DNA of 64,000 nucleotides from a virus. The position numbers and the translations under genes are program-made. The first letter of the stretch is position 1. Each line of letters begins with the position of its first letter. Below the pieces are notes generated by a model. It did no database searches. It was not told the origin of the DNA and saw only the letters and a program-made list of their open reading frames with translations. Of this stretch, positions 17,764-57,779 are shown in pieces. The stretch lies in the IMG/VR virus record IMGVR_UViG_3300031413_000624. The stretch is one strand, 5' to 3'.

Positions 17764-18717
17764 ATGAAAGTATACAACGACACAGTTGTAATGACTGACT
17801 CCCTGATCCGCATGCTTGATGGATATCGCGCTGAACGAGGTTTTAACGCCTCAGAATGGGTTGAGCGTAAAGTTGCTCTCATCAACGCTTACTTCGCGCA
17901 GAGCGGCCTGTCAGGGGCTGTTGTAGGGGTTTCAGGAGGTATTGACTCCGCTGTTGCTCTTTCTCTTGTCGTGAAAGCATCACAGGTGGAAGACAGTCCA
18001 ATCAAGAAGATTGTTCCGATTCTTCTCCCCGCATTTTCCTACACAGGAGCTACCCGTCAGAACGAAGCTACAAACCGAGCAGAAAGCCTGTGCACAAAAC
18101 TTGGACTCGAAGCAGTCATCTTCCATCAGCTCACACCAATGGCTGAAATGATGAATGCAGAATTAGAGAACGTTTTGGGAATTCGGGCAACCCCTTGGGC
18201 TAAAGGCCAGTTAGTTGCATACACCCGAACCCCAATCCTGTACAGCACCTGCTCCATTCTCACGGACGCAGGATATCCAGCCTTAGTCATTGGAACTACA
18301 AATCTGTCAGAAGGTGGATACTTAGGTTATGTCGGTAAAGCCGCTGATGGCATGGTTGACTTACAGGTAGTGAGTGACTTGTACAAATCAGAAGTGTACC
18401 AAGTTGCGGAACTGCTAGAAGTACCAAACCTCATTATGAAAGCAACGCCAACAGGAGACATGTTTGACGGTCGGGATGACGAAACAGTGTTCGGAGCTTC
18501 CTACGACTTCGTGGAACTCTATCACCTCTGGCTGCAAAATGGCTCCGACCCTGAACTTCTGAAAGATGAAACATTCGCAGCAGGAGCGGCGAACCTTGAA
18601 AAGATGCACGCTTACAATGGTCATAAATATCTGTACGGTACACCATCAGTTCATTTGGATATCCTTCGTGCAGACATTCCTGGTGGTTGGAATAACAAAG
18701 CTTGGAGCGCTAAATAA
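17764..18717 (+). CDS. PP-loop ATP pyrophosphatase (NadE-like)
   Basis: SGGIDSAV PP-loop motif; AAAGGA RBS before 17764. Confidence 0.6.
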   Translation: MKVYNDTVVMTDSLIRMLDGYRAERGFNASEWVERKVALINAYFAQSGLSGAVVGVSGGIDSAVALSLVVKASQVEDSPIKKIVPILLPAFSYTGATRQNEATNRAESLCTKLGLEAVIFHQLTPMAEMMNAELENVLGIRATPWAKGQLVAYTRTPILYSTCSILTDAGYPALVIGTTNLSEGGYLGYVGKAADGMVDLQVVSDLYKSEVYQVAELLEVPNLIMKATPTGDMFDGRDDETVFGASYDFVELYHLWLQNGSDPELLKDETFAAGAANLEKMHAYNGHKYLYGTPSVHLDILRADIPGGWNNKAWSAK

Positions 18718-19457
18718 TGGCGACCAAATTTGTCAACCAAATTGACTTCACTATTCCAGCTATCCAACATGAAGTTGAAGTGGAGCCACTTCCTGAGTTA
18801 GACCGTTCAGCAGTGGTTATCCCTAACCTTATCCCAAGCAAAGAACGAGTTCATATCCTCCAAGAACTCAGTAAAGCGAACTGGCAGCCAGTATCCATCA
18901 CTGGAATGTCAGGTAACTGGAAGCCAGGGGATGAAATTGGGTCTTACCGAGCCTCAAACTACACACCAGAATACGCCACTGTATTATGGGACAGAATCAA
19001 ACACGCTTTCCCAACGGTTCGAGTGTTCAATCAGGAAGACAATACTGATTTTGATGACCATGAACTCTGGGAACCTGTTGGAGTTTCTCCACTGCTTCGT
19101 TTCATCAAATACGAAGATGGAGGCTGGCTTGTTGTTCACTATGACGCTCCATATGTTGAAGATGAGGACACTAGGACACTACAAAGCTTTGTTATCTACT
19201 TAGAACAGAGTCCCACGATTGCAGGTGGAGCAACTCGATACCTGCGAGACCCGCAAGCAGGGATTCCTATTGCTCAACGTATTTTAGATGACCAGAAACG
19301 TGCAGCAACCGAGGATGAAGTCCGGCTTCGTTTCACCCCTGAAAATGGAACAGGTGTCATCTTTGACCACAGACTTCTTCACGATGCTGCGCTCGTTCAG
19401 GGCGAAGGTCACAAAATTATTATCCGTACCGACATTATGTACAGGAAAGTCCGATGA
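18717..19457 (+). CDS. 2OG-Fe(II) oxygenase superfamily protein
   Basis: HYDAP (HxD) ... DHRLLH facial-triad arrangement; start/stop overlap with neighbours. Confidence 0.5.
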   Translation: MATKFVNQIDFTIPAIQHEVEVEPLPELDRSAVVIPNLIPSKERVHILQELSKANWQPVSITGMSGNWKPGDEIGSYRASNYTPEYATVLWDRIKHAFPTVRVFNQEDNTDFDDHELWEPVGVSPLLRFIKYEDGGWLVVHYDAPYVEDEDTRTLQSFVIYLEQSPTIAGGATRYLRDPQAGIPIAQRILDDQKRAATEDEVRLRFTPENGTGVIFDHRLLHDAALVQGEGHKIIIRTDIMYRKVR

Positions 19458-20965
19458 AAACAGACCGCTATTTTGATGCGTTATACGAACGCACTCACAG
19501 TGAACAGGATTTAACAACAGCTGGTTGGTTAGAAAAGCCAACACAAGTGAACCAGCAGTTACGGTATTACACAACGCCAGTTGATGCTATCCGTGATGCA
19601 GGCAAGGAAGAAGTCTCTGTTCTGTTTTACCCAGGATGTTTCGCCCCAGTGCATGAAGGTCATATCACTGCAATGCGCTTAGCCAAGGAAGCTGTCGAAG
19701 CGACAGGCGAAACAGTGGTAGCTGGTTTCTTCACACCAGACCATGATGACTACATTATGCGTAAAACGCATGATGAACGTTTCACAGCAGCGAACCGGGT
19801 AGAGCTTCTACATGCAGTAACTAAAACAGAAACATGGATGCAGGTAGACCCTTGGGCTGCTCAGTATGCTCCTACTGATTTGAACTTCACCACATTGTAT
19901 GATCGTTTGAATCAATACCTCAAACGTTGGGTACCAAATGTCAAAGTAAAGCTCTACATGGTGTTTGGTGGAGACAACTACATGTTCGCTAATGCTTTCA
20001 CTGAATATGGGTATGGGGTTTGCGTTCCTCGTGAAGGAGTTTCTATTGACTGGACCACAGTCCATCCTGATGCTCAAAAGCGTGTAGTTCTCAGTACGAA
20101 AAGCAGCACAAATCATTCATCCACAGCGGCCCGAGCAATGTACTCAAACCCTGCTGAAAAAGGTGGTCGGAGTACGATGGGTAAGCGCTACGTCCTTCGC
20201 AACGATTTAGATGCAGCATTTGAGAACACTACGGAGTACCCGAATTATCTTATCGCTCAGACTCTGCAGATTCTCTTCCACTCACATCTTCCAGAGGATA
20301 TCAGTGTCCAAACAGTTGATATTCATGACCAGTTCCAGCATCATCAGGAAAAAGCTGGGATCATTTCAATGGATTCATTTTGGAAAGCTGAATACAATCT
20401 TGACATTACCAGACTCTTCAATGCAGCCGGTGGCCAGAATCATCCATTACGGTACATCAACCGCCCAGGTTCCGATGATTTGCAAACACAAATCAAACGA
20501 ATCCCAGAAGGTGAATATGTACTTGCAGATGACGACATCGCTACTGGTGAAACCATGAAATTTGTTTCCAATGTGTTAGGCACTCACGGCATCAGAATTG
20601 TGGACACTCTAAGTCTTATCGATGAACTCAACACTGACCTGTACGATTTAGCTGACATGAGAGACTATGTGTTAGGGGCAAAGAATGGTGGGTTGACCGT
20701 TGTTGCTCCAAACGGTCAAGTGACACGAATGCCGTACTTTGCTTCCTATGTGAACGTTTCAGCAAGAACACGTATTCAGCCTAATAAAGCTCGCAGTTTC
20801 TCTATTGAAATTTGGAAGCTCAATCGCTCTTTGTACAAGAACAGTAGCCTTACCGTAGGAGACATCAAAGAGCATCAAGATTTCACCCTCTTTGGGTTCT
20901 CAGAGCAGATGCGGCTTGTTGAATTATGTGAGAAGCATTTAGAGCTGTTAGGTGTGCAAAGCTGA
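19454..20965 (+). CDS. nucleotidyltransferase (NMNAT-like, HxGH) fused to a type I phosphoribosyltransferase domain
   Basis: PVHEGH motif N-terminal; VLADDDIATGETM PRPP-binding motif C-terminal. Confidence 0.6.
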   Translation: MKTDRYFDALYERTHSEQDLTTAGWLEKPTQVNQQLRYYTTPVDAIRDAGKEEVSVLFYPGCFAPVHEGHITAMRLAKEAVEATGETVVAGFFTPDHDDYIMRKTHDERFTAANRVELLHAVTKTETWMQVDPWAAQYAPTDLNFTTLYDRLNQYLKRWVPNVKVKLYMVFGGDNYMFANAFTEYGYGVCVPREGVSIDWTTVHPDAQKRVVLSTKSSTNHSSTAARAMYSNPAEKGGRSTMGKRYVLRNDLDAAFENTTEYPNYLIAQTLQILFHSHLPEDISVQTVDIHDQFQHHQEKAGIISMDSFWKAEYNLDITRLFNAAGGQNHPLRYINRPGSDDLQTQIKRIPEGEYVLADDDIATGETMKFVSNVLGTHGIRIVDTLSLIDELNTDLYDLADMRDYVLGAKNGGLTVVAPNGQVTRMPYFASYVNVSARTRIQPNKARSFSIEIWKLNRSLYKNSSLTVGDIKEHQDFTLFGFSEQMRLVELCEKHLELLGVQS

Positions 20966-25128: not shown

Positions 25129-25974
25129 ATGACCACTTTACAGAAGCACATCATTGAAACCCTCGGAGTGAAAGCGAAAGTCAACCCAGAGGAAGAGTTC
25201 CGCACTCGTGTAGACTTCCTCAAAGCTTTCACTAAAAATGCAGGAACACGTGGATTCGTCCTCGGGATCAGTGGAGGGCAGGATAGTGCTCTGGCTGGAT
25301 ACGTTGCTCAGACAGCTGTTCGTGAACTCCGTGATGAAACAGGCAAAGACTATGAATTCCTTGCCCTGCTCCTTCCATACGGTACACAGCGGGACGGGGA
25401 TGAAGCAGTAACCATCGCAAAAGACTTTATCAAAGCCGACCAGGTAATTGAATACAACATCAAAGACACTGTAGACGCTTTCGCAAACACCTTCAACACT
25501 ATTGCAGATGCTGACCCTGCAAACGGTGACAACCTTGCCGACTACCACAAAGGTAACGTCAAAGCACGTGTTCGCGCCATCACACAGTACGCATATGCTG
25601 GACAGCGACAGCTTCTGGTTGTTGGGACCGACCATGCAGCAGAAGCTGTCAGCGGCTTTTTCACGAAGTTCGGAGATGGTGCTGCTGACATTCTCCCTCT
25701 TAGCGGTTTGAACAAACGCCAGGGAAAAGAAGTGCTTCGCTTCCTGGGTGCTCCTGAGTTTGTTATCACTAAGGCTCCTACTGCTGACCTTTTGGACACT
25801 AACGCAGGTCAGGCTGATGAGACTGAACTTGGCATCACCTACGATGTGCTGGATGACTACCTTGAAGGCAAGACTGTCGCAGAAGCTGCTCAGCAGAAGA
25901 TTGAACTTCGTTACCTGGTGACTGAACACAAGCGTCAGCAGCCTGTTGACCCTTTTGCTGACTGGTGGAAGTAA
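25129..25974 (+). CDS. nadE: NH3-dependent NAD+ synthetase
   Basis: [12 protein letters not shown]-loop; length and overall pattern of NadE. Confidence 0.85.
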
Positions 25975-37489: not shown

Positions 37490-38971
37490 TTAGGCAGTTG
37501 CAATGCGAGCACGAGTGATAACAGTCTGCTCATCGCCATTGAATGTGTCCAAGTCTTTGATAGTTGCACTGGATACAGTAAGCATGTCGCCGGCTTTGAA
37601 CTCTTTCTCTCCGCTTGCCCACCATTTAAGTTCTTTTCCTTCATCAGTGGTCATAATAAGGAGAGTCTTGTAGCTGTCTCCGACATTAGGGATGTATGTT
37701 GGGATGAGCTGAGCTCGCTTTACTGTTACTGGCACGTTTCTGAGCTTATCGCCAATTTGACCAACATAACCTTGGGCTCTTGGTCGACTTTCACGTTCCT
37801 GGCGAGCTTGCTGCTTTTTCGCAGCAGCAATAACGGAAACAACGTAGCCAACATGTTTGTAAGAAACATACTCTTGTGAGAGAAGCGTCTTCATGTTACG
37901 ACCGTAATCATTATCCGTGTCAAAATGAGTGGTCTCTATTACGGAAGTCGCCGCGGCCTCATGGTCTTCAAGGTTGATATCGTTGTAACGGTTGTTATTG
38001 TTGGATGAGAAGAAGAAACTTTTCACTTCGGAGGCAGTAGAGTCTTGGCCTGTTTCTCTTTCAAGCATACGGGAACGATACTTCTCACCATTGTCTGAAA
38101 TGGCCAGAGCTGCGGCTACAACGGATTTTGTTGGCAGCATGCTGTCCTGGCCACCCCAACGACGTTCACCGCGGTCTAAGTAATCGTCACCTTCTTCTGG
38201 GTCATAGTTGAGCGCCCACAAAGCTTTCGGACGAACTCCTGAAAATGACTCTAAGCAGTTAGAACCGACCTGCTTGTATTCACCTGTGTCTTTGTTGCGA
38301 AGCAGGTAAGTTGATGAACGTCTACGATTACTTCCACAGTGGTCACATTCAAAATGTTCAGGGGCATAACCGTTGAGTTCCTGACCAGGAACAACACGGG
38401 TGAGCATGGCTCCATCTTCTGTTTTGTCTACAGCAGCAACAAAATCCCATCCTCCAACATGAAGCTCGGGATAAGTAAGGCTCATACGAACCATGTTAAA
38501 ACGGTGACCTTCGTTGTCTTCTTCAACGAAGTGTTCAACTTCATAGTCGAACCGCTCTTCAACTCCTGCGCGGGTCAGTTTTCTGTTCGCAATATCAATA
38601 CGGTGAACTGCTTCATCTAGCCTGGAAGCAGGGAAAACTGAAACGCCTTCTACCTTCTCTTCCACTGAGGCACGTAAACGTTCGCCATCTTCTAACAGCT
38701 GCTGGTATTTCTCTTTCTCAGTCCAGTCGTTGGTCTCAGCAACTTTGTTAGTGAAGAACTCTTGACCACTGTCTGTGGCTGCGTACTCTACGGAGGCTTC
38801 TTTGAGTTTTTCTGATAGAGTGTAACGATCTTGGATGTCAGTGGTCTCTTCTAACTGGGAAGATAAAGCACGGAACTTCTCTTCAACGCGATCTAAGTAA
38901 GAAGCGTGTGTTGCACCATGGTAGCGGCAGGCAGCTTTATTGATTGCTCTGCATTCACGTGTAGTAGTCAT
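37490..38971 (-). CDS. hypothetical 493-aa protein with N-terminal CRAINKAACRYHG motif
   Basis: Cys-His motif family; internal C-x2-C (HFECDHCG). Confidence 0.5.
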   Translation of the reverse strand: MTTTRECRAINKAACRYHGATHASYLDRVEEKFRALSSQLEETTDIQDRYTLSEKLKEASVEYAATDSGQEFFTNKVAETNDWTEKEKYQQLLEDGERLRASVEEKVEGVSVFPASRLDEAVHRIDIANRKLTRAGVEERFDYEVEHFVEEDNEGHRFNMVRMSLTYPELHVGGWDFVAAVDKTEDGAMLTRVVPGQELNGYAPEHFECDHCGSNRRRSSTYLLRNKDTGEYKQVGSNCLESFSGVRPKALWALNYDPEEGDDYLDRGERRWGGQDSMLPTKSVVAAALAISDNGEKYRSRMLERETGQDSTASEVKSFFFSSNNNNRYNDINLEDHEAAATSVIETTHFDTDNDYGRNMKTLLSQEYVSYKHVGYVVSVIAAAKKQQARQERESRPRAQGYVGQIGDKLRNVPVTVKRAQLIPTYIPNVGDSYKTLLIMTTDEGKELKWWASGEKEFKAGDMLTVSSATIKDLDTFNGDEQTVITRARIATA

Positions 38972-46165: not shown

Positions 46166-47605
46166 ATGTGTAGAAATAAAGAAGAAGGCGGTCGCCGCTG
46201 TACCGATCACAATGCATTCGGACAGCAGATCAGAAACCTTCAAGCGAAAAAGCAGTATCATGCAAAATATGGTCACACTGACAAAGTAACTTCGGTTGTT
46301 GAAGAAATGGATGCTCTTCGTGACAAGAAGCAGCATCTCTTAGAAGATGGAGGAACTGTTCTTCCATACACGATGCCATTGACCCCGAATGCGGAAAGAG
46401 TCCTCAACCAGCTCCGTGAAGACGGGTATGAGCCTTATGTTGTTGGAGGAAGTGTTCGTGACGCTCTTCTCGGATTAGACTCAAAGGATGTTGACATTGA
46501 AGTCTATAAAGCTACACCAGAAGAAGTCATTGCTTCCCTTCGTAAAATTGGTCAAGTGGATGAAGTGGGTAAATCATTTGGTGTCTTGAAAATCCAAATT
46601 GGGGGAGAAGACTTTGATGTCTCTCTTCCTCGTAAAGACTCTAAAATTGGTGACGGACACAGAGGGTTCACTGTTGAAGTAACTCCTGAACTCTCACTCC
46701 ATGAAGCAACTGCTCGTCGTGATTTCACCATCAATGCTCTCATGTATGACAACGAAATGGGATTCATCGTTGACAAGCACGGTGGTTTGAAAGATTTGGA
46801 GAAAGGTCATCTCCGTCATGTTTCAGAAGCTTTTGATGAGGACCCACTCCGTGTTCTTCGTGGAGTACAGATGGCTTCACGTTTTGATATGGAACTCCAC
46901 CCAGACACAGTAGTCAAAGCTCAAACACTGAAAGACCAGTTCGGTGATTTGGCTCGAGAGCGAGTCCAAACTGAATTCCAGAAGCTGTACCAGAAAGGTA
47001 AAGCTCCTCACAAAGCGTTCAAGCTTTTGCAGGATACAGGTTGGGACGCAAACTTCTCTGGTGTTGCAGAAGTGAATGGAAAATCTCTGCGTCGTAATCT
47101 GCAAAGAACTCAGGAGTTGACTGACCAAGGAGTCATCCCTAAGGAGAAAGGTGCATACATCCTTTCAGCGAACATTGCATCTCATCTGAATGATAAAGAT
47201 GCAAGAAACTTCTTGACATACACTACTGTTGGTGATGATTTGAAGAACAAGTCATACAACCTTTCTCGTGTTGAGCTACCAGTGAAGCAAGGAAAAGCTT
47301 CTTTGCGAGCATGGGCAAAAGGCATGCCTCGCCACGTCACCATTCAAGACTGGGTTTTACTCAGTAAAGCCAAAGGTGACAAGGAAGTAGCAGAGCGTAT
47401 TGAACGCAAAGCAGAAAAACTTGGCATTTTGCACAGCCCTGAATCTGACATGGTATCAGGAGATGATGTACTTGCTGCTTTCCCTGAACGTAAACCAGGT
47501 CGTTGGATGAAAGAAGCCTTAGATGCAACTCGTAACGCTCAGTACTCTGATGTGTTCCGTGACCGCGAAAAAGGTATTGCCTGGGTCAAAGCAAACATTA
47601 GCTGA
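46166..47605 (+). CDS. cca: CCA-adding tRNA nucleotidyltransferase with N-terminal Cys-His motif
   Basis: GGSVRDALLGLDSKDVDIEV polymerase-beta motif; RRDFTINAL; N-terminal MCRNKEEGGRRCTDH. Confidence 0.8.
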   Translation: MCRNKEEGGRRCTDHNAFGQQIRNLQAKKQYHAKYGHTDKVTSVVEEMDALRDKKQHLLEDGGTVLPYTMPLTPNAERVLNQLREDGYEPYVVGGSVRDALLGLDSKDVDIEVYKATPEEVIASLRKIGQVDEVGKSFGVLKIQIGGEDFDVSLPRKDSKIGDGHRGFTVEVTPELSLHEATARRDFTINALMYDNEMGFIVDKHGGLKDLEKGHLRHVSEAFDEDPLRVLRGVQMASRFDMELHPDTVVKAQTLKDQFGDLARERVQTEFQKLYQKGKAPHKAFKLLQDTGWDANFSGVAEVNGKSLRRNLQRTQELTDQGVIPKEKGAYILSANIASHLNDKDARNFLTYTTVGDDLKNKSYNLSRVELPVKQGKASLRAWAKGMPRHVTIQDWVLLSKAKGDKEVAERIERKAEKLGILHSPESDMVSGDDVLAAFPERKPGRWMKEALDATRNAQYSDVFRDREKGIAWVKANIS

Positions 47606-49051: not shown

Positions 49052-50512
49052 ATGAGTATCCAGAATTCAGCAGCCGTTAAAACCAGAGTGCTTTCCTTAT
49101 GGGAGCAGCCTCGTTTCTTTGTTGGCCTCATCCTTATTCTCATTACTTCATTCAGCTTGATCCGAGCCAGTTATTTCCCTGAAACAGATGTGTTATGGGG
49201 AGCCCGTAATGGGGAAGAACTTGTCAAAAATGGGTTTCATGTTTACATTGCAGATACTTGGAATCTTACAACATTAGGACGAGTCTGGTCGCCAAATTCC
49301 TGGCTATGGAATGTTATTCTATTCCTCTTTTACCATGCGTTCGGAACTATAGGGTTTGTGATCCTCACTGCCATCACAAATTTCTTAACATACCTGTTTA
49401 TTTTTCTGACAACCAGAAAGCTCAAAGTTCCAGCTACCTGGCAGTTCCTCATTCTCATAGCTTCATGGATTGTGTTGACTGCATATATGAACGGTAGATC
49501 AAACGCCGCAGACGTGTTGATCCTGACAGGGTTTGTCTATCTGTCTTCTTTCTTACGCTTCAAAAACCCATTCATTACAGCATCCAGCATTATCGTAGGT
49601 TCTTTCCTCATCCAAGTACTGTGGCTGAATATCCATCTGACTGCAATATTAGGGTTAGTACTTCTTCCTGCTATCACATTTATTCTACAAAAAGGCAAGC
49701 CTTTCTGGAATAAGGCAGGCTTGGCAGTAGCTTCGCTTATTGGAACCGCGTCAGCTATGCTAGTTTCTCCTTTTGGGTTAGAAGGATTAGCGAAGACTCT
49801 GCAGACTCGAAACGAGTCAGTGAACTTCTTTGTAGAATGGTCCAACATTTTCTATACAGGAGAGCCGAACTGGCCAGTTATTATCATGCTGCTCATCGGA
49901 GTTGGGTTGAGTGTATACCTCTTTACTCAGAAACAGTATCTTGTTGTAGCACTGTTTGCTGTGTTTATTTATGAATCGTACACCGCTATTCGGTTTGCTC
50001 CGTACCTGCTGGTTCTCTCATTAGCTTGTCTTGTCTACATCAAACGATGGAGTGAACCGAAATGGTTTAGTTTGTTGAAGTTTGTAGGCATTGTCATCTC
50101 AGTGATTATTATGGTGGTTGCGTTGGGTGTTGGGGCAAAAGCTGTTATTAACCCGAATAGTACTGTACCTGTGAATCCTATCCTTTTCAAGGAAATCCCA
50201 CAGAATGCTCATGTTGCAACAACGTGGCGTTCCAGTGCTGAACTTATTTTGTACCGCCCTGATACGAAAATCATTATTGACGGTAGGAATGATTTCATTG
50301 GGAAGAAGCAGTATAAAGAAGCAAATGATGTTTTCGCAAAGACAAGCACATTATACATCAAGAATTGGTTCGCCAAGTATGACATTGATACTGTTTTCGT
50401 ACCTGACTCTTCTTTGCCTGAGTACGAGAATATCATCAAACAGATGAAGAAACTTGGTTGGTCTGAACACCAGTATCAGCAATCAGTTACTTTTGTCGAA
50501 GTAAGCAAGTAA
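49052..50512 (+). CDS. polytopic membrane protein (possible GT-C-like glycosyltransferase)
   Basis: About 12 TM helices; TAGAAT 8 nt before the ATG. Confidence 0.5.
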   Translation: MSIQNSAAVKTRVLSLWEQPRFFVGLILILITSFSLIRASYFPETDVLWGARNGEELVKNGFHVYIADTWNLTTLGRVWSPNSWLWNVILFLFYHAFGTIGFVILTAITNFLTYLFIFLTTRKLKVPATWQFLILIASWIVLTAYMNGRSNAADVLILTGFVYLSSFLRFKNPFITASSIIVGSFLIQVLWLNIHLTAILGLVLLPAITFILQKGKPFWNKAGLAVASLIGTASAMLVSPFGLEGLAKTLQTRNESVNFFVEWSNIFYTGEPNWPVIIMLLIGVGLSVYLFTQKQYLVVALFAVFIYESYTAIRFAPYLLVLSLACLVYIKRWSEPKWFSLLKFVGIVISVIIMVVALGVGAKAVINPNSTVPVNPILFKEIPQNAHVATTWRSSAELILYRPDTKIIIDGRNDFIGKKQYKEANDVFAKTSTLYIKNWFAKYDIDTVFVPDSSLPEYENIIKQMKKLGWSEHQYQQSVTFVEVSK

Positions 50513-50559
50513 ACCCTCTAAAAATCAATGGTTGTGGGTCCGATAGGGATAAGTATAGC

Positions 50560-51786
50560 TTGTCGAAAAGAAAGATTTTTAGATCATCCATGGTTACTCA
50601 CACACTAATACAGCAGGACAACTTAGCATTTCTCAATGAAGAGGTTGAGAAGAACGTTTACGAGTTGCAACGCAATGTTGACACCATCTACATTGATCCT
50701 CCTTATAACACAGGGAACCATGAGGCAACAGGCTTCACATACAATGACGATTTTGGTAAAAATGCTGACCGTCATACTGCCTGGTTACAATTCATGAAGG
50801 AACGCCTCGTTCCAGCTCGCACCTTACTGAAAAACACAGGAGTTGTTGTTATCTCCATTGATGATTCAGAGGTCCATCGTCTTCGCGTTCTCATGGATGA
50901 AATTTTCGGTGAACAGAACTTTATCGCCCAGATCGTTGTTGATGGTGGAAATCCAAAGAACAACGCTCGTTTCCTATCTACTACTCATGAATACATGCTG
51001 GTATATGCCCGTTCAGCTCATGCGTTATATAAGTCAGGCGTGAAATGGCGTAAACGACGCGAAGGTATTGACAAGCTTCTCAAAGAGTATGAGCGCTCTA
51101 AGAAGCGCTACAAAGAAGACTACGAGCAGGTCACAGCTCATTTGAAGCAGTGGGTCAAAGGTCAGAAGCTTACCAAACGTCTGAAAGTGTTTTATAACGC
51201 TGATGCGAAAGGTTTGTACACCTATGCTGACTTGTCTGCGCCAGGAGCTGGGTTGCGGTACGAAGTTTTGCATCCAGTAACTGGTAAGCCTTCCCAGGTT
51301 CCTTCTCGAGGCTGGGGTTTGAGTGAAACCAAGTTCAAAGCGTTAGACGCTGCTGGTTTAGTACTGTACGGGAAAGATGAGACGGCACAGCCTTTGAAGA
51401 AGTTGTATTTGCAAGATAAGAAAGACCAAGTGCAGAAAAGCATTCTTGAATACCCTTCACGCTCCTCAACTCATTTGTTAGAGAAGTTATTAGGTCGTCG
51501 TAGTTCATTCAACAACCCGAAGAATTTGCAGATGATGACAGATTTGATTGACCTCATCACACCTGAAGACGGAACCGTTCTGGACTTCTTCGCGGGTAGT
51601 GGAACAACAGGACATGCTGTTCTTGCATTGAACAATAAAGGTTCAAAGCGTAAGTTTGTTCTGGTTACAAACAATGAGAACAACATTTTCTACGATGTCA
51701 CAAAGCCTCGGTTAGAGAAAGCTGTTGAAGCTCTGAAATCAGAAGATGTTGTTAAAACTGTTGAACACGTCAATCATTTATCCTAA
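50560..51786 (+). CDS. N6-adenine/N4-cytosine DNA methyltransferase (beta class)
   Basis: IYIDPPYNTG (motif IV) upstream of FAGSGTTGHA (motif I); TTG start. Confidence 0.8.
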   Translation: MSKRKIFRSSMVTHTLIQQDNLAFLNEEVEKNVYELQRNVDTIYIDPPYNTGNHEATGFTYNDDFGKNADRHTAWLQFMKERLVPARTLLKNTGVVVISIDDSEVHRLRVLMDEIFGEQNFIAQIVVDGGNPKNNARFLSTTHEYMLVYARSAHALYKSGVKWRKRREGIDKLLKEYERSKKRYKEDYEQVTAHLKQWVKGQKLTKRLKVFYNADAKGLYTYADLSAPGAGLRYEVLHPVTGKPSQVPSRGWGLSETKFKALDAAGLVLYGKDETAQPLKKLYLQDKKDQVQKSILEYPSRSSTHLLEKLLGRRSSFNNPKNLQMMTDLIDLITPEDGTVLDFFAGSGTTGHAVLALNNKGSKRKFVLVTNNENNIFYDVTKPRLEKAVEALKSEDVVKTVEHVNHLS

Positions 51787-51822
51787 ACCGATTGTAGACA
51801 GGTATATAGAAAGAGAATTATT

Positions 51823-52425
51823 ATGAGTATTATCATCACTCCTAACCAGGTAGCTTCACGAGACAATCGTGCTCCTGCTCCTGCTACAAAGCCAGACGGT
51901 TCAGGTTTCCAATGGCGCATGTTCTACCAAAGCAACAGCATGATTGCTGATGTTGACTCAACCGCTGATGCTCTTGAAGTTCTTAGTTCAGGCTATGCTT
52001 CATTGAGTACAGAAGAGAAGCTGGAAGACCGTATCCGTTTAGCTCAGACTGTCCAAATCAATGCCCGTAGCATCATCGCTTCACGCATTTCTCAGAAGAC
52101 TGCTTCCGAACTCAAAGACTGGGAATGGGAGGTTCTCCTATATCAGGGTGACCCATATGGTTGGGGCAATGGTACAGGTAAACTGGGTGAGCAGGATGAT
52201 GAGAGCTTAGATATTTGGTCTTCTGACATTCCATTAGTCCTCGTGTCAACCTCTTATGCGCCTCATACGGATATCATCAAACCCATTTCCATTGAAGGTG
52301 ATTATAAGGAAGTAAAGAACCTTATCTGGCTCCGTCCAGAGCATGAGTTAGAGTTTCTGCAAACACTTTCTCGCATTGGTTATATTACATTTGGCCGTCC
52401 AGCTGTAGAAGACGTTTACGCTTGA
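51823..52425 (+). CDS. hypothetical protein
   Basis: ORF. Confidence 0.45.
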   Translation: MSIIITPNQVASRDNRAPAPATKPDGSGFQWRMFYQSNSMIADVDSTADALEVLSSGYASLSTEEKLEDRIRLAQTVQINARSIIASRISQKTASELKDWEWEVLLYQGDPYGWGNGTGKLGEQDDESLDIWSSDIPLVLVSTSYAPHTDIIKPISIEGDYKEVKNLIWLRPEHELEFLQTLSRIGYITFGRPAVEDVYA

Positions 52426-52502
52426 AGCATTTTCTGTAAAAGGACCAAAGTACACGCTTTACTTGATAGCTATAAAGCAAGCTAAACCCAGAAGGAAAAT
52501 AC

Positions 52503-55500
52503 ATGTGTAATGCGATCCGTGATGGCGGTCAACGTTGTGCCGTCCACCAACACACAAGCACAGCTGCTATTCGTACAGTAGCAGCTCATACCGGATTAGA
52601 AGTCCGACAGGTTGAAAGTGTCTTCCGTGAACTCCGCCGTGAAGGTGGACGTAACGCTGCACCAGTGCCGCAATCAACCTTAGATGCCATTCAGACAGAG
52701 TTTCGCACCATTGCTGAGGCTTTACCTGTTCACGCTTTATATGAGCGTCAGATGGCTTCTGCTGCAGAAACCAATGAAGAACAGACTCCTCAGACTCACT
52801 ACGCTTTACAGCGTTTACTGACGCGTTCTACTGAACGTGCTGCGAGCTTACAGGATGCTTTCAACGACTTAGCAAACCGGACAGGATATGCCGCTGAGGA
52901 ACTTCGTTACCGGTATCAGACAGAGTATGCTGCTGTTCCAACAGGTAACGGTGTTGACATCCCAGAGGAAATGACCCCCGCAAACCGAGCACGAGCTCGC
53001 CGGTCAGGTCTTCCTTATGACCGTCCATCAGTTGTTGCTTTCGAACGCACTCGTGAGCTTGCAGAGAGAAATCATGTTTACGAGGAAGCTAACCGTCGTA
53101 TAACATCATGGGAATCTCCTAACGCTGAAAACTCAAGCATTGCAGTCATGGGTTATGATGAAGGGCGTTTGGAACTGTATTTCACAAACGCCCCTGAACA
53201 GCTATACTCTTACCAGAATGTTCCAGAAGACTTGTGGAACCGTCTACGTGAATCTCCTCGTCCAGGAATGATTTATTCACGTAGCATTAGTGGTAATGAA
53301 GAGTTCCAGTATGCCTCAGCAGCAGAAGCTGGACGCGATGCTTACCGTGTTCGCTGTGCAGCTTGTGGACAGTTCCGTGCCGCAGTTCATTCCTGCCCAG
53401 AACGCGCTCATCGTGAGCGCTTAGTCCGCGCTGGATACACAACTGAGGAAATCGTTGAAGCTTTGGCCAACGGCACTGATGTTGTAGAAGAATCAGTTGC
53501 TTCTGAAACTTCTCATGAATTATTTGCTCGTATTCCTCAGGCCGATTCTGCCGATGAGTCGTCTGTCAGAGAGTTTATTGCTTCTGAACACTTCCAGGAG
53601 AGAATGCCATTCGGTCAAGCTGTCCAAACTGAAAATGGCCGTTGGGTCGTTGATTTAGTTGACTACTCAAACGAAGAGCAATCTGAGAACCCCTTCGGCG
53701 ACAATCGTTTCTTTGACTCTCGTTACAGCTCTATCAATAACCGTGGAACGTCTCGCTGGACTCATGACTTTGCAGACCGTGATAATCCTACCTCAGATGA
53801 ACTCATGGAAATTAGCCAGTACCATACTGCGTACAGAAGTTTATCTGGTGTTAGAACACTGCATTATGTTAACGTTGTGCGCGATAATTTACAAAGCATG
53901 GATTTCCGCATGCCAGTTCAGGCAAGTTTCACAGGACTTAACTCTCCTGATGATTCAGGCCGCTACCTTCCCTCAGGTACAGTAACTGGGTCTTTGACTC
54001 TTGGACGTTTAGAAGAAGGAGAACGTCTTGAAGATGCTGTTGCCCGTGAGCGGAACTTGCGTTGTGATTGTGCCGACTACCAGGAAAATTACGACTGTAT
54101 TCATGTTCGTACAGTAACTCGTAACCCTTATGTCTTCTTAGCAAACCGCAGTAACCAGTTTATTGAAGGTGAACACCTGCGCGATTACCGTTCAGGTTTC
54201 ATCACTGCGATTTCTGAAGAAGAAAGTATGCGCAGTTACATGCGTGATAACGGCATGACTCGTGAAGAAGCATCGGCAGCGATTGAAGCCGAACGCGCTG
54301 AGCGTCGCCGTATTGAAGAAGAGCAGCAAGCATATTACCAGGCTTCTCTTGCTGACCGTCGCCGTATTGACATGGAACGTGGTACTCGTAATGCACAACG
54401 TTTAGCTACAACTAATGCTGCGGTTATTGCTGAGAATGATGCTCATCGTGCTCGTATGGCTGCTCGTTGGGAAGAAGTTGAACCAGGTTACTCTGATAAC
54501 GTGGATGCTTTGTACGAAGACTATGTGACCACTATGCGTCGTCGTCGTGCAGGTGAAGAAGTTCTTGATTACCGTACTGAGAATGTCACTGATGGTATTT
54601 GCTCTCCAGAACCTGGTGGACGTGCGTTTGGTGTTGAGTTAGAGTTCGATATTGACCCAAACACTAACCGTTATCAAGCTCTGCAAACAATTGCTCGTGA
54701 ACTCCACGAAGCAGGTCTTACTGAAAATGACTACCAGACCAGCTACCATTCTGCTCGCAGAAGTGGATGGGGTTCTTGGTCATTTGAAGAAGACTCCACT
54801 GTTTCAGGTGAACTCGTTTCTCCTATCATGCGAGATACTCCTGAACATTGGCAACAGTTGCAGACAGCTCTTGAAATCATCAAGCGTAATGGTGGAATCT
54901 CAACAACACGTACTGGTTCCCACGTTCACATTTCAACAGCATCATACGAATCCTCACCAGCAAAGCACATGGAACTTATTCGTCAGGTAAATGCTAACGA
55001 AGAAATGATGTATCGTTTAGCTTCTAGTCCCGAGCGTGGAAATCACCGTGGTATGCAATGGTGTGGTCCTAACGTAAATACAGGTGTAGATGATATCTCA
55101 GCTGATGTTTCCAGTGCGCATAACGTTATGCATGACCATGTTGGACATGGCTATGCTATGAACTTCGAGTCCACATATCAGCAGGATTACCGTCGTTCAA
55201 ACGTTGAATTCCGTATGTGGGACGGTACCCTTGATGCAGCTGTTATCCAGCGTCAAGTTATGGTTTCTGCTGCTATGACAGACTACGCTGAGCGTAATGT
55301 CATTGAAAACGGTAGAACTTCTGCTGTTCCTCGTCAAACTGTCGGTGGAGAAAGAGAAGTTCAGCGACAGATTCATACTGGACGTGGACGGTTAAGTCGT
55401 GAACACTTTGAACAAACAATGGGAAACGCTCCTCAATTTATGGACAACCTATTCCGTCGTCAAGAGGACCGTCGTCGTGTAGCTGAGCTGTTCTCCATTA

Positions 55501-55550
55501 CCAATTGGGCTGATTACAGTGACAATTACGAGGAAGACTACGATTACTGA
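52503..55550 (+). CDS. 1015-aa multidomain protein: N-terminal Cys-His motif, SWIM-like zinc finger, C-terminal amidoligase-like domain
   Basis: MCNAIRDGGQRCAVHQH; CDCADYQENYDCIH; GVELEFDI ... TGSHVHIS, as in the glutamine-synthetase-like amidoligase fold. Confidence 0.55.
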   Translation: MCNAIRDGGQRCAVHQHTSTAAIRTVAAHTGLEVRQVESVFRELRREGGRNAAPVPQSTLDAIQTEFRTIAEALPVHALYERQMASAAETNEEQTPQTHYALQRLLTRSTERAASLQDAFNDLANRTGYAAEELRYRYQTEYAAVPTGNGVDIPEEMTPANRARARRSGLPYDRPSVVAFERTRELAERNHVYEEANRRITSWESPNAENSSIAVMGYDEGRLELYFTNAPEQLYSYQNVPEDLWNRLRESPRPGMIYSRSISGNEEFQYASAAEAGRDAYRVRCAACGQFRAAVHSCPERAHRERLVRAGYTTEEIVEALANGTDVVEESVASETSHELFARIPQADSADESSVREFIASEHFQERMPFGQAVQTENGRWVVDLVDYSNEEQSENPFGDNRFFDSRYSSINNRGTSRWTHDFADRDNPTSDELMEISQYHTAYRSLSGVRTLHYVNVVRDNLQSMDFRMPVQASFTGLNSPDDSGRYLPSGTVTGSLTLGRLEEGERLEDAVARERNLRCDCADYQENYDCIHVRTVTRNPYVFLANRSNQFIEGEHLRDYRSGFITAISEEESMRSYMRDNGMTREEASAAIEAERAERRRIEEEQQAYYQASLADRRRIDMERGTRNAQRLATTNAAVIAENDAHRARMAARWEEVEPGYSDNVDALYEDYVTTMRRRRAGEEVLDYRTENVTDGICSPEPGGRAFGVELEFDIDPNTNRYQALQTIARELHEAGLTENDYQTSYHSARRSGWGSWSFEEDSTVSGELVSPIMRDTPEHWQQLQTALEIIKRNGGISTTRTGSHVHISTASYESSPAKHMELIRQVNANEEMMYRLASSPERGNHRGMQWCGPNVNTGVDDISADVSSAHNVMHDHVGHGYAMNFESTYQQDYRRSNVEFRMWDGTLDAAVIQRQVMVSAAMTDYAERNVIENGRTSAVPRQTVGGEREVQRQIHTGRGRLSREHFEQTMGNAPQFMDNLFRRQEDRRRVAELFSITNWADYSDNYEEDYDY

Positions 55551-56180
55551 TTAGCGTAGGGTGGTTTCCAACGCTGACACAGAGTTCAGGTATTCTTCAA
55601 CATCGGAGAACAAACCATCTGTGAACGCTGCGGAAACCATCCTTGCTTGTAATTGCAGCCCCATCTCGTCACCTGAAAGCTTTTTTGCTAACCCTGTCAG
55701 AGTGTAATCCTCTTTTGAAGGCACGCCCAAGTTGTGGATCAATTCTACTGCTGCTTGAATCTGTTTTTCATTGAGAGCTTTATCCTCTGACAGGGTTTTG
55801 TGCATCCATGAGGTGACATCAGCTTTCAATACGGCGTTTTGCTCGATGTAGTCTTCTTCTGTGGTAAGAAGCCAAGAGAAGCTACCTTCATTCTTCCACT
55901 CATTGAGATTATGCTGGACTCCGATTGTATCAAGTCGCTCAATGAGTTCCGCTCCTGCAATGATGACAACATCGTTGATTGTTCCTGCTGGCTCAACCTC
56001 AGGCTGCCAAACGTACAGGTCTTCGCCTGGTTGCAATTCAGCTACTTCCCCGTTGTCGCCTTTGTAGATTGTTGTTCCATCTTCTTCTTTGTAGAAGGGT
56101 ACTGCGGTAACGAGCGTGCCTACATTTGCAACTTGATTTGGAACGAACCCGTAAAGTGGGCGAGTGGTTGTATCTGTCAT
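55551..56180 (-). CDS. hypothetical protein (209 aa)
   Basis: ORF. Confidence 0.45.
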   Translation of the reverse strand: MTDTTTRPLYGFVPNQVANVGTLVTAVPFYKEEDGTTIYKGDNGEVAELQPGEDLYVWQPEVEPAGTINDVVIIAGAELIERLDTIGVQHNLNEWKNEGSFSWLLTTEEDYIEQNAVLKADVTSWMHKTLSEDKALNEKQIQAAVELIHNLGVPSKEDYTLTGLAKKLSGDEMGLQLQARMVSAAFTDGLFSDVEEYLNSVSALETTLR

Positions 56181-56232
56181 GAGAGAAGACTACCAAACTG
56201 TTGATGTTTAGAGGATTTTGAGAACTTTAATT

Positions 56233-56249
56233 ATTTTTCGTCAATTTGA
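56233..56249. promoter_or_regulatory. TTTTTCGTCA-att-TGAC motif (copy 3), next to TTGCCG-N17-TACACT
   Basis: Seen at 56233-56249; promoter hexamers at 56258 and 56281. Confidence 0.45.
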
Positions 56250-56346
56250 CTGAAAAACTTGCCGATACTCTTTAAGAGTGATACACTAAGAACATAACGA
56301 ACGGGGTTACTTGAACGCCCGAGAAAAACAACAAGGAGCAAAAATT

Positions 56347-56970
56347 ATGTGGTACATCATCCACACCAATTATGACCTCACCGAAGGTCGCGGCTGGGAA
56401 ATTCCCACCACTATTACTCAGGACCGTAACGTCGCCCTCTGGTACGCTCACACCTATCGCCCATTCTACGGCCAGGTGCAGGGCATCCACGCTGTACATG
56501 GTGCCGACAAGCTGACTTATGACCGTGAGCATGAATTCTTGAAGACCTACCCTCGTGGTGAAATTGTTGACCCTGAGTTGAACGCTCAGTGGAAGCAGTA
56601 CGAAAAGACTTTCACTGACCAGGGCAGGAAGTTGCCTGAACCTCCCATGAACCCTCAGACAGTGTATGTCGTCGGTTATGTAACGGACCCAGGTATTGGT
56701 GGGACAGTCATTCGGAACCAGTTCATGCCTGCCCAGTTCTTCACGGATTATAACGAAGCACAGCAGGCAGCTATTGCAGGTGCTGATGCAGGTAATAAAA
56801 TCTGGCACATCATTGCATTGGAAACAGACACCTACTGTGGGACTCGTGCTATGGCGAAGGAACGTATCTTCACCTACCCTGTTCCGAAGCCCGCTATTGT
56901 TGAAACTGAACAGATTCAGCAGTATGATATTGATGAACTGACAGACCTGTTCACAGTAGGAGCGAAGTAA
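56347..56970 (+). CDS. hypothetical protein
   Basis: AAGGAG RBS before the ATG at 56347. Confidence 0.5.
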   Translation: MWYIIHTNYDLTEGRGWEIPTTITQDRNVALWYAHTYRPFYGQVQGIHAVHGADKLTYDREHEFLKTYPRGEIVDPELNAQWKQYEKTFTDQGRKLPEPPMNPQTVYVVGYVTDPGIGGTVIRNQFMPAQFFTDYNEAQQAAIAGADAGNKIWHIIALETDTYCGTRAMAKERIFTYPVPKPAIVETEQIQQYDIDELTDLFTVGAK

Positions 56971-57191: not shown

Positions 57192-57779
57192 ATGACAAAG
57201 GGTTTGCTTATCGTTGACGTGCAGAACGATTTTATTGAAGGGGGTAGCCTGGCAGTCGCAGGAGGAGAGAAAGTCGCTCTAACGCTTGCAGAGCACCTCC
57301 TGGATGCTGATTACCATGCGCTCATCACCACTCAGGACTGGCACATTGAGCCTGGAAACCATTGGGCAGAAACTCCCGACTATGTGGACACCTGGCCTGT
57401 GCATTGCGCTGCAAACACTGCTGGTGCATCGGTACGCCCTGAGCTGGCGGCTGCCATTGTTTCCAAGGTCAGCGAACAGCGAAGCCTTCGGTATTTGCGC
57501 ATCGTCAAGGGTGAGTATGAAGCAGCTTACTCAGGTTTTGAAGGCCGCGACTTTCTTGGAGGGAATGAGAAGGTTCCTACCCTTATCCGTGAGCTTGGTG
57601 TAGATGAACTGGACATTGTAGGACTGGCGACAGACCATTGTGTTCGCGCTACTGTTCTGGACGCTCTGAAAGCGGGATTCAAGGTAAACGTCCTCACCGA
57701 CTATGTTGCAGGTGTCGACCCTGAGCGCTCCAAAGCAGCTCTTGCTGAAATGGAAACAGCAGGCGCAACTCTCGTCTAA
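57192..57779 (+). CDS. pncA: isochorismatase-family hydrolase, nicotinamidase (PncA)-like
   Basis: LLIVDVQNDF; catalytic GLATDHCV. Confidence 0.7.
   Translation: MTKGLLIVDVQNDFIEGGSLAVAGGEKVALTLAEHLLDADYHALITTQDWHIEPGNHWAETPDYVDTWPVHCAANTAGASVRPELAAAIVSKVSEQRSLRYLRIVKGEYEAAYSGFEGRDFLGGNEKVPTLIRELGVDELDIVGLATDHCVRATVLDALKAGFKVNVLTDYVAGVDPERSKAALAEMETAGATLV

Follow-up and report, generated by a model that had tools for sequence, protein, structure and literature searches.

A predicted glutamine-synthetase-like amidoligase with SWIM and KTSC modules, and its conserved partner gene, on mobile DNA

Locus and layout of the 1015-aa protein

The window, i.e., the whole 64-kb stretch of DNA analyzed here, carries an ATG-initiated ORF encoding 1015 aa, followed from its N- to its C-terminus in Table 1. 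A Shine-Dalgarno-like AAGGA lies ~7 nt 5' of the ORF, whose coordinates include the stop codon and whose product ends in ...DYDY*. Upstream lies a conserved 200-aa partner gene, itself immediately preceded by an N6_N4 MTase gene (50560-51786). A promoter and terminator scan of 50400-56400 gave counts near the shuffled expectation. An identical protein (P0001) is found on contigs of up to 883 kb. The ORF and all motifs quoted in the original prediction are present in the translation, and the size, described there as giant, is ordinary for a family with members of ~800-1500 aa. Eight of the ten cysteines fall within three motifs, which together with their conservation in a 42-member family alignment places these motifs beyond chance. 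Visual inspection of the sequence indicates a highly charged, soluble protein that lacks any signal-peptide- or membrane-like hydrophobic stretch.

Table 1. Features of the amidoligase locus, in window coordinates
Feature	Position	Strand	Basis or remark
Conserved 200-aa partner gene	51823..52425	+	77 nt upstream of ligase ORF, co-directional
Whole ORF, 1015 aa	52503..55550	+	Translation
N-terminal motif MCNAIRDGGQRCAVHQH, aa 1-17	52503..52553	+	Cys at position 2/3 >=90% conserved
Conserved N-terminal region, aa ~18-209, ...SGL..Q.E..F..LRREG...	52554..53129	+	Family consensus
KTSC domain, aa 210-264	53130..53294	+	Pfam PF13619
CCHC zinc knuckle, C285-x2-C288-x7-H296-x-C298	53355..53396	+	4 residues invariant, 42 members
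Variable acidic linker and pre-SWIM module, aa ~299-514	53397..54044	+	Length and copy number differ among paralogs
SWIM zinc finger, aa 515-538, C521/C523/C532/H534	54045..54116	+	CxCxnCxH signature
Charged Arg/Glu-rich linker, aa ~539-706	54117..54620	+	Sequence composition
Amidoligase_2 / GS-like carboxylate-amine ligase domain, aa 707-924	54621..55274	+	PF12224, PHROG 2443
C-terminal helical tail, aa 925-1015	55275..55547	+	F.D.LFRR.EDR..A..LF..T.W motif; helical in model

The N-terminal motif had been proposed as a family motif, and this is true of its first cysteine (C2, at least 90% conserved in the 42-member alignment), but not of the second, since C12 is missing from a large sub-branch starting with MSCRxT. 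The same 15-aa motif, with its near-invariant Cys, heads an unrelated CCA-adding-enzyme-like ORF in the window (46166-47605). The region at aa ~18-209 has no Pfam family match. It is followed by a KTSC domain scoring 27.2 bits against a curated cut-off of 25 bits, and a PDB entry of a KTSC protein (7x8c) was matched weakly (E 0.26). The zinc cluster at aa 285-303 (CAACGQFRAAVHSCPERAH) is present, but the ligands differ from the C-x2-C...C...H first suggested: C285, C288, H296 and C298 are invariant and form a CCHC knuckle, while the trailing H303 is not conserved and is excluded. One relative (P0007) has up to three copies of the knuckle.

The SWIM-like finger was borne out by its signature, which is exact at aa 521-534 (CDCADYQENYDCIH; C521-D-C523-x8-C532-I-H534), and each of the four ligands is at least 90% conserved among the 42 members. 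The fragment from the window protein scores just below the PF04434 cut-off of 19.6 (16.6 bits, E 0.0057, aa 515-538), but homologs exceed it (P0003, 27.0 bits; P0020, 30.9; P0059, 20.0; a C. perfringens plasmid protein, 21.1). Family members have one to three SWIM modules each, and the best-scoring stretch of P0003 is its amidoligase-proximal copy, where the single SWIM of the window protein sits. Nucleic-acid binding is predicted for KTSC and SWIM (PMC9503650, PMC7824862), and the zinc fingers may likewise bind nucleic acid. The charged linker that follows ends with a conserved W.E..Y...F..DY..A..R...GE...P..TENVT.G, a consensus common to stand-alone plasmid homologs, and the tail motif is kept as far as the homolog on a Clostridium perfringens plasmid. 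A candidate match of the tail to Pepco (PF24393) was rejected, being below threshold (E 0.085) and absent family-wide.

The amidoligase domain

The C-terminal domain matches PF12224 (Amidoligase_2) with 49.5 bits (E 6.6e-13) over model positions 3-243 of 245, well above the curated cut-off of 22 bits, and PHROG 2443 'amidoligase enzyme' with an E-value of 1.1e-11. The three motifs of the original prediction are found at aa 710-717 (GVELEFDI), 768-775 (SGELVSPI) and 804-811 (TGSHVHIS), and a further motif, NVEFRMWDG (E-x-R), lies at aa 900-908. Eight residues (E712, E714, E770, H807, R849, E902, R904 and D907) are invariant across the 42-member alignment and H809 is at least 90% conserved, as expected of metal- and ATP-binding residues. 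A model of the C-terminal 337 aa is confident (pLDDT 80.7, pTM 0.85), has a GS-like catalytic fold and places the ExE, E770, HxH and ExR motifs in predicted β-strands. The original prediction was to be dropped if no GS-like fold was detected or if the catalytic positions were displaced; neither was the case. The domain is thus a member of the GS-like carboxylate-amine ligase superfamily (Amidoligase_2), catalytically intact by its residues, and we consider it very probable that the whole protein is an active GS-like ligase with SWIM and KTSC modules.

The acidic, His and Arg motifs follow the same order as in GS, glutamate-cysteine ligase and YbdK, at 9-14% identity, and the GS N-terminal β-grasp domain is absent. 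From this motif order, ExE, E, HxH and ExR are likely equivalent to E129/E131/H269/E357/R359 of GS; TGSHVHIS presumably corresponds to 'GSGMHxH' of GS and EFRMWD to its 'E-x-R-x-x-D'. Single-sequence and profile searches of the PDB returned no related chain for the amidoligase. For PF12224 we found neither a biochemically characterized member nor a solved structure, and no literature assigning a function to the SWIM–amidoligase family was found. A paper on a 'CfmP amidoligase' was set aside as a comparison, as it concerns an ATP-grasp enzyme. The window protein shares the ExE / E / HxH / ExR signature with PF12224, PHROG 2443 and the NCBI 'amidoligase family protein', but differs from them by ~700 additional N-terminal residues (Cys motif, KTSC, CCHC knuckle and SWIM) and by a conserved partner gene of unmatched fold.

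The family, its partner gene and its carriers

The 1015-aa protein belongs to a large uncharacterized family. At least 186 cluster representatives match its N-terminal 678 aa (E<=1e-3); of the 149 hits listed and inspected, nearly all have the knuckle, SWIM and ExE motifs. Pfam detects Amidoligase_2 in 42/42 members, KTSC in 38 (best E 4.1e-12) and SWIM in 6. The fusion is therefore not the one-off novelty it was first taken for, as the architecture is widespread in the family. Searches of a phage collection with the whole protein (megablast and tblastn) gave no match, and the catalytic domain alone retrieved only three records with up to 26% identity, so the sub-family is essentially absent from sequenced phages. 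An IMG/VR scan returned only distant relatives (up to 31% identity), and PADLOC and NCBIfam gave no match for the ligase, the partner, DUF4417 or the γ-glutamyl-cyclotransferase-like (GGACT) neighbor described below.

A shorter SWIM–amidoligase core is found on Streptomyces linear plasmids and in 101 Clostridium plasmid records, nearly all of those listed being C. perfringens. These stand-alone proteins, e.g., WP_015141756 on C. perfringens pNetB-NE10 and three paralogs on Streptomyces NZ_CP109456, are 380-540 aa long, without the KTSC/knuckle module or the MC... start; their amidoligase domains are 27-43% identical to that of the window. The C. perfringens protein has the core of SWIM, charged linker, amidoligase and F..RR.(E/K)D(R/K) tail in common with the window protein, while the Streptomyces paralog P0012 has the same linker, amidoligase and tail but no SWIM signature. 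Streptomyces plasmids have three amidoligase paralogs each, and one 581-kb element has eight in tandem. Catalytic motifs are intact in the five tandem paralogs checked, SWIM copy number differs among these, and tandem paralogs differ from one another in the number and sequence of their SWIM, KTSC and knuckle modules. Such paralog diversification is typical of conflict systems.

In 38 of 77 genome loci, the partner gene adjoins the amidoligase in the same orientation, and the two genes are also neighbors in four further related metagenomic contigs, of which three span 0.58-0.78 Mb. Homologs lie directly upstream of orthologous amidoligases in L007 (54% identity), L010 (35%) and L103 and upstream of an amidoligase array in L102, and one homolog (BLASTP E 4e-13) has amidoligase paralogs on either side of it on a Streptomyces plasmid contig. 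The partner has no match in Pfam or PHROG, and its confident model (pLDDT 89) matches no solved fold. Its N-terminal arm is conserved (N8, R13, D14, R16, P18, P20) at lower confidence (pLDDT 68 for residues 11-20). Streptomyces plasmids carry this same gene, whereas Firmicute stand-alone versions pair with DUF4417, which also takes the place of the partner in many members of the Clostridia and Dormibacterota branch; hhalign found no relationship of the partner to DUF4417 or to the downstream 209-aa ORF. The C-terminal half of the partner is also known from Arthrobacter-type and Dietzia plasmids that have no annotated amidoligase close to it, so the partner is not obligate everywhere. We nevertheless regard a functional ligase and partner cassette on mobile elements as highly probable.

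The family travels on mobile DNA. Its carriers are linear plasmids of Streptomyces, Tcp-type plasmids of C. perfringens and metagenomic contigs of 0.58-0.88 Mb whose gene content resembles that of phages and of actinobacteria. The label 'phage' given to the amidoligase is not established: its closest relatives are plasmid-borne, and the 880-kb contig may or may not be a phage. These large contigs might be small cellular genomes, which fits the presence of Hsp70, ClpB, gyrase and DnaG. However, several features favor an actinobacterial giant phage or plasmid: the Rnl1, PNKP and NAD-synthase genes are duplicated, there is an ART toxin-like gene, and many ORFs lack a family match. A PHROG 2319 gene with best matches in Rhodococcus and Gordonia phages, and the lack of any tRNA in the 64-kb window, also argue against a cellular genome. 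An Rfam scan of the window gave no hit.

The genes around relatives of the amidoligase include those for a GGACT-like protein, a class-II glutamine amidotransferase (GAT-II, GATase_6), DUF4417 and ParB. The GGACT gene adjoins the amidoligase in L007, L010 and L102, and is joined by GATase_6 on a Streptomyces contig (L002); plasmid L003 has homologs of both genes, annotated as γ-glutamylcyclotransferase family protein and hypothetical protein. This association is shared with other PF12224 / PHROG 2443 members, as described independently for Clostridium prophages, where the amidoligase lies beside a γ-glutamyl cyclotransferase (PHROG 2520) (PMC11318856). Replic_Relax, ParB_N and DUF4417 precede the amidoligase on Streptomyces plasmids, and pNetB-NE10 has the order dcm, DUF4417, amidoligase, adjoining tcpH. 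An ART-PolyVal gene lies near one relative. The original prediction proposed a search for GAT or peptidase partner genes; GGACT and GAT-II do flank relatives, but tblastn found no homolog of GGACT, GATase_6 or DUF4417 inside the window.

Proposed function and alternatives

We favor, at a probability of roughly 45%, an establishment or conflict enzyme of mobile elements, by which a macromolecule would acquire a γ-glutamyl-type amide. To our knowledge, all characterized members of the GS-like fold activate a carboxylate with ATP to an acyl-phosphate and then join it to an amine, and the ligase would do the same. The bond made is most likely a γ-glutamyl-type amide, because relatives are repeatedly flanked by GGACT-like and class-II glutamine amidotransferase genes. 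This argument rests on relatives, since the window has no such homologs, and GGACT is found within 10 kb in only 17 of 77 genome loci (GATase_6 occurs in 15 of 77), which speaks against it; we put γ-glutamyl-type chemistry at slightly below even odds. The SWIM, KTSC and knuckle modules would most likely deliver the enzyme to its target, a protein or protein-nucleic-acid complex of the host or the element, with the partner protein probably as cofactor, adaptor or first substrate. Its likely role would be establishment or counter-defense after entry of the mobile element. Protein-directed members of the same fold exist, which we count in favor of this reading, but a macromolecular target with a role in conflict is still somewhat short of an even chance.

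In its strongest form, which we consider rather unlikely, the cassette would represent a previously unreported way in which mobile elements tag macromolecules. Interchangeable SWIM modules would guide the GS-like ligase, a protein of unmatched fold would serve as its cofactor or acceptor, and γ-glutamyl-type marks would be placed on host defense or housekeeping proteins or on protein-bound nucleic acid to secure establishment. Arrays of up to eight paralogs would be a diversified targeting repertoire. More speculatively, the near-invariant N-terminal Cys (MC.../MSC...) could mark proteins that are themselves acylated at Cys1 by thioester-to-amide chemistry. Polyvalent proteins (Iyer et al., 2017, PMC5512222) are likewise large multidomain proteins of mobile elements in a conflict-type context. 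However, only one catalytic domain was detected in the window protein, with no MuF, portal, relaxase or T4SS-coupling fusion, and it does not qualify as one. Amidoligase, COOH-NH2 ligase and KTSC domains were not found in the text of that paper, where SWIM appears only with SNF2 ATPases.

Nucleic-acid binding by the accessory modules would also suit hypermodification of DNA nucleobases, with the zinc fingers and KTSC holding the ligase on DNA while a modified base bearing a carboxyl or amine group is amidated or extended for protection against restriction. KTSC and SWIM are predicted to bind nucleic acids (PMC9503650, PMC7824862), DNA methyltransferase genes are found close to the amidoligase in the window, in pNetB-NE10 (dcm) and in a Streptomyces plasmid, and in viral metagenomes thymidine-hypermodification clusters are accompanied by amidoligase and amidotransferase genes of unassigned role (PMC8989533). 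However, the window ORFs scanned include no 5-hmdU kinase, aGPT-pyrophosphorylase or dUMP hydroxymethylase, and the family is common on conjugative plasmids, which draw on host nucleotide pools and have no known hypermodified bases. As tandem arrays of up to eight paralogs also suit target diversification better than a single step on DNA, we find this explanation unlikely.

Most characterized enzymes of the fold (GS, GCL, YbdK, γ-glutamylmethylamide synthetase, 1-naphthylamine GS) use small molecules, and the product could be a soluble γ-glutamyl-amine or short peptide, e.g., a γ-glutamyl-polyamine as made by GlnA3/PuuA, with the N-terminal modules serving regulation or oligomerization. Free γ-glutamylamines are the substrates of GGACT-type enzymes, and a GAT-II neighbor could provide glutamate or ammonia. 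Yet a metabolite enzyme would have little need of ~700 aa of conserved zinc-finger and KTSC modules, duplicated or triplicated SWIM units and paralog arrays, and the cassette is surrounded by genes for plasmid transfer and partition, not by metabolic operons, which makes a small-molecule ligase improbable.

The adjacent, co-oriented ligase and small protein also recall PafA/Pup, in that the 200-aa partner might be a tag or obligatory first acceptor joined to target lysines, with GAT-II in a Dop-like deamidase role and GGACT in removal. The conserved N-terminal arm of the partner could enter the active site. Unlike Pup, however, the partner is folded rather than a disordered tag with a C-terminal Gln/Glu, beyond the conserved FGxP its C-terminal tail varies and lacks a conserved terminal Glu/Gln or Gly-Gly, and it has no invariant Lys or Glu. 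There is also no proteasome context, and the replacement of the partner by DUF4417 in many members further makes Pup-like tagging very unlikely. Modification of the cell envelope or receptors, in which amino acids on peptidoglycan or surface polymers would give superinfection or entry exclusion, follows an idea for the phiEco32 amidoligase (attributed to Iyer et al., 2009 in PMC11318856) and fits the NlpC/P60 genes near some relatives, but is highly improbable for a soluble, charged protein with domains of cytoplasmic types (zinc fingers, KTSC).

Collectively, our results define a coherent large sub-family whose architecture is fixed and whose catalytic set is invariant, together with a tightly linked partner gene whose fold is unlike anything solved and recurrent γ-glutamyl-processing neighbors. 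Annotations of Amidoligase_2 genes on phages and plasmids date back to 2009. With tractable homologs on plasmids of cultivable Streptomyces and of C. perfringens, the question of what mobile-element amidoligases modify is therefore directly testable. If the target is a host defense protein or a nucleic-acid-associated protein, the family would be a new class of counter-defense or establishment enzyme.

The amidoligase protein and its domains

The amidoligase ORF at 52503-55550 (+) comprises 1015 codons from an ATG start, with a Shine-Dalgarno-like AAGGA approximately 7 nt 5' of the start codon. All motifs quoted in the original prediction were found at their positions in the translation, and eight of the ten cysteines lie within the three Cys motifs. 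Metagenomic contigs, the longest of 883 kb, encode an identical protein, and an 858-kb metagenomic contig encodes one with 86% identity, which shows that the gene is real and conserved.

Features of the window and motifs of the amidoligase (nucleotide positions unless marked aa)
Feature	Position	Strand	Remark
MCNAIRDGGQRCAVHQH	aa 1-17		Amidoligase motif
CAACGQFRAAVHSCPERAH	aa 285-303		Amidoligase motif
CDCADYQENYDCIH	aa 521-534		Amidoligase motif
GVELEFDI	aa 710-717		Amidoligase motif
SGELVSPI	aa 768-775		Amidoligase motif
TGSHVHIS	aa 804-811		Amidoligase motif
NVEFRMWDG	aa 900-908		Additional amidoligase motif, beyond the original list
N6_N4 DNA methyltransferase	50560-51786	+	Immediately upstream of partner
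Partner, 200 aa	51823-52425	+	77 nt upstream of amidoligase, same strand
Unannotated ORF, 209 aa	55551-56180		Convergent, flanks amidoligase
Hsp70, ClpB, NucS/EndoMS, GyrB + GyrA	7272-9125, 27677-30175, 11906-12601, 59027-63579		Cell-like housekeeping
Two T4 Rnl1-type RNA ligases, two PNKPs, CCA-adding-like	4990-6120 (-), 13186-14088, 16058-17371, 34439-35482, 46166-47605		RNA-repair set
Two NAD synthases, cytidylyltransferase/NMNAT-like, isochorismatase/nicotinamidase-like; ADP-ribosyltransferase exoenzyme-like	17707-18717, 19454-20965, 25129-25974, 57192-57779; 32385-33293		NAD+ set, plus exoenzyme-like ORF

The C-terminal domain had been predicted to adopt the glutamine synthetase (GS)-like amidoligase fold, and this is borne out. 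Pfam Amidoligase_2 matches aa 707-924 with 49.5 bits (cut-off 22), PHROG 2443 (“amidoligase enzyme”) matches with E 1.1e-11, and the AlphaFold2 model of aa 679-1015, based on an 18-sequence alignment, is confident (pLDDT 80.7, pTM 0.85). In both the domain alignment and the alignment of 42 full-length members, E712, E714, E770, H807, R849, E902, R904 and D907 are invariant and H809 is conserved in at least 90%. The prediction depended on a detectable GS-like fold and on conserved catalytic positions, and both were found. The predicted β-strands hold the ExE, E770, HxH and ExR motifs, in the order of GS (ExE ... E ... GxHxH ... ExRxxD); the catalytic residues of the two were matched by this motif order. 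Sequence searches of the PDB with the amidoligase, as single sequence or profile, matched no chain, and the chains searched included no solved structure of the Amidoligase_2 family. The domain is a bona fide Amidoligase_2 member. It is followed by a helical tail whose motif F.D.LFRR.EDR..A..LF..T.W is kept as far as Clostridium.

The N-terminal ~700 residues contain a KTSC domain (aa 210-264; 27.2 bits against a cut-off of 25), which was found in 38 of 42 relatives. The first Cys cluster, proposed as C-x2-C...C...H, is better described as a CCHC knuckle, since C285, C288, H296 and C298 are invariant in the 42-member alignment while H303 is unconserved. The SWIM-like finger is upheld by its signature, C521-x-C523-x8-C532-x-H534, which is at least 90% conserved in the same alignment, although the PF04434 score of the window fragment itself falls below the cut-off (16.6 bits, E 0.0057, cut-off 19.6, exactly aa 515-538). 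Homologs pass this cut-off, namely the proteins P0003 (27.0 bits), P0020 (30.9) and P0059 (20.0) and a C. perfringens plasmid protein (21.1); the best stretch of P0003 is the SWIM copy proximal to the amidoligase domain. By signature and homology, we consider that the amidoligase carries a SWIM finger. The region from knuckle to SWIM is acidic and variable, relatives have one, two or three SWIM modules, and between SWIM and the ligase domain lies a charged linker. The high-GC ortholog P0007 (10001-14074 of the 60-kb contig L010) has the knuckle CxxCGx[FWY]...HxC in three copies and two SWIM modules, which indicates that the zinc modules act as independently duplicating units.

The 15-aa N-terminal motif MCxxxxxGGxRCxxH also heads the CCA-adding-enzyme-like ORF 46166-47605 (+) (PolyA_pol; 7/15 identical), which is otherwise unrelated to the amidoligase. 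A start of the form MC......RC..H was also seen on a 307-aa ORF near P0007 (L010 19617-20540, -). The shared motif might form a short zinc knuckle, serve as a signal for targeting or packaging, or be the site of a modification. Two N-terminal variants occur in the family, MCxAxxxGGxRCxxH as in the window protein and MSCRxTxxGSAxT..ARLxSGL, which have just the Cys at position 2/3 in common.

Partner gene, neighbours and tandem arrays

In a 782-kb (54% identity), a 60-kb high-GC (35% identity) and a 696-kb contig, the giant amidoligase is immediately preceded by an ortholog of the partner; in a 581-kb contig, one lies upstream of an amidoligase array. On a plasmid-like contig of Streptomyces avermitilis, a 180-aa gene that separates two amidoligase paralogs is also homologous to the partner (E 4e-13). 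Across 77 genome loci a homolog is present in 38, always adjoining an amidoligase gene and co-oriented with it. The C-terminal half of the partner was also seen on plasmids of Dietzia and of the Arthrobacter type, where no amidoligase is annotated nearby. These findings mark the 200-aa gene as a conserved partner of the amidoligase. Its product has a conserved N-terminal arm, N8...RDNRAPAP.

DUF4417, a domain of unknown function for which phage fusions to ParB-CTPase folds are reported, is found near the amidoligase in 40 of the 77 genome loci (L025-L101) and also at 6423-7406 of locus L004. Outside Actinomycetota, SWIM–amidoligase genes have DUF4417 as their most frequent neighbour, and in Clostridia and Dormibacterota it is the usual one; in Streptomyces it occurs together with the partner. 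DUF4417 and the 200-aa partner seem to alternate; they showed no homology in hhalign. Other neighbours among the 77 loci are ParB_N (19), Replic_Relax (18), γ-glutamyl(amine) cyclotransferase-like GGACT (17) and the class-II glutamine amidotransferase GATase_6 (15), and on pNetB-NE10 the gene order is tcpH ... dcm, small ORF, DUF4417, amidoligase. The suggested search for partner genes of the GAT or peptidase type thus gave a divided result: tblastn found no GGACT, GATase_6 or DUF4417 homolog in the 64-kb window, but GGACT and GATase_6 do occur near relatives, with GGACT immediately adjoining the amidoligase in the 782-kb, 581-kb and 60-kb contigs. In Clostridium prophages, an amidoligase (PHROG 2443) is likewise next to a γ-glutamyl cyclotransferase (PHROG 2520) (PMC11318856).

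Two N6_N4 methyltransferase genes (398-408 aa), one in the window at 50560-51786 and one at 21775-22971 of L001, lie ~12 kb apart and flank the cassette. Plasmid homologs likewise have methyltransferase genes close by: dcm on pNetB-NE10 and an N-6 methylase on NZ_CP109456.

The 581-kb contig Ga0540640_0000002 (L102 11348-20633 and L008 1-15939) contains eight tandem paralogs in ~27 kb (1329, 1309, 1333, 1316, 927, 911, 967 and 985 aa), which follow single copies of the partner and GGACT genes. In the five paralogs checked, the catalytic motifs are complete and the SWIM copy number differs. Two ClpP genes lie just downstream of the array.

Family distribution and the nature of the replicon

A word-indexed search gave only seven full-length relatives. 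When aa 1-678 were searched exhaustively with HMMER, 186 cluster representatives passed E<=1e-3 and 116 passed E<=1e-10; most are 800-1400 aa long. Nearly all of the 149 matches listed have a knuckle, one or more SWIM signatures and a downstream ExE. The proposed fusion of zinc fingers to an amidoligase is real and, among these matches, a widespread family architecture. The catalytic domain alone retrieved “amidoligase family proteins” of 380-540 aa from Streptomyces, Actinomadura, Flindersiella and a Leuconostoc MAG, several with an upstream SWIM-like finger.

In PLSDB, a homolog is found on 112 plasmids, including 101 Clostridium records (C. perfringens nearly throughout among the matches listed; 99 typed mobilizable) and nine Streptomyces plasmids with three copies each. 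The 77 loci in GTDB representative genomes are mostly from Actinomycetota (Streptomyces, Nonomuraea, Kutzneria and Embleya plasmids, Nakamurella), with Dormibacterota, Chloroflexota and Clostridia represented as well. Sequenced phages and IMG/VR gave distant relatives only. The data give no firm basis for the designation as a phage amidoligase: the sub-family is borne by plasmids and giant elements and is not typical of phages.

The ~880-kb source contig, ERZ27247428 k141_538707, may be a huge phage, a giant plasmid or a small cell. A DnaG gene lies just past the window edge, and the window also encodes RNase H and an Rv2179c-like exonuclease; many of its ORFs have no family match. No tRNAs or Rfam matches were found in the 64-kb window, and no structural or conjugation genes were seen in its gene content. 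The 493-aa ORF 37490-38971 (-) matches PHROG 2319 of unknown function (E 1.7e-57), and its best sequenced-phage matches, Rhodococcus phage Finch and Gordonia phage Stormageddon, hint at an actinobacterial host. Overall, the gene repertoire resembles that of an actinobacterial huge phage or giant plasmid. The duplicated RNA-repair set suggests defence against host systems that cut tRNA or RNA.

Proposed function and relation to known systems

To our knowledge, all characterised members of the fold use ATP-dependent acyl-phosphate chemistry, and by analogy the ligase would do the same. GGACT and GAT-II enzymes both act on γ-glutamyl amides, and given these neighbours the product would be a γ-glutamyl-type amide. 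The variable SWIM and KTSC modules would target the ligase to a macromolecule. Hypermodification of DNA by the amidoligase seems unlikely to us, and we are similarly doubtful that it is a ligase for small molecules. Pup-like tagging, in which the partner would be the tag, is less probable still, and the absence of a Pup-like tag sets the amidoligase apart from Pup-ligase systems. Envelope modification is very improbable.

On mobile elements, where an intact GS-like ligase fused to KTSC, knuckle and SWIM modules is kept in a conserved partner cassette and has diversified in tandem, macromolecule-directed amide ligation would serve establishment or counter-defence, as suggested by the paralog arrays and the neighbourhood of ParB, DUF4417, methyltransferase and transfer genes.

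The catalytic family, Amidoligase_2, and the domain types are already known; the KTSC domain, knuckle, SWIM finger and partner gene are additions to it. The published definition of polyvalent proteins (PMC5512222) does not fit the amidoligase, which has a single catalytic domain, and term searches of that article gave no mention of amidoligase, COOH-NH2 ligase or KTSC. We found no functional study of the family in the literature, where annotation is generic only. We found no earlier description of the conserved architecture, of the partner with its unmatched fold or of the paralog arrays. While no great surprise for specialists, the family provides a concrete, testable handle on the function of mobile-element amidoligases.
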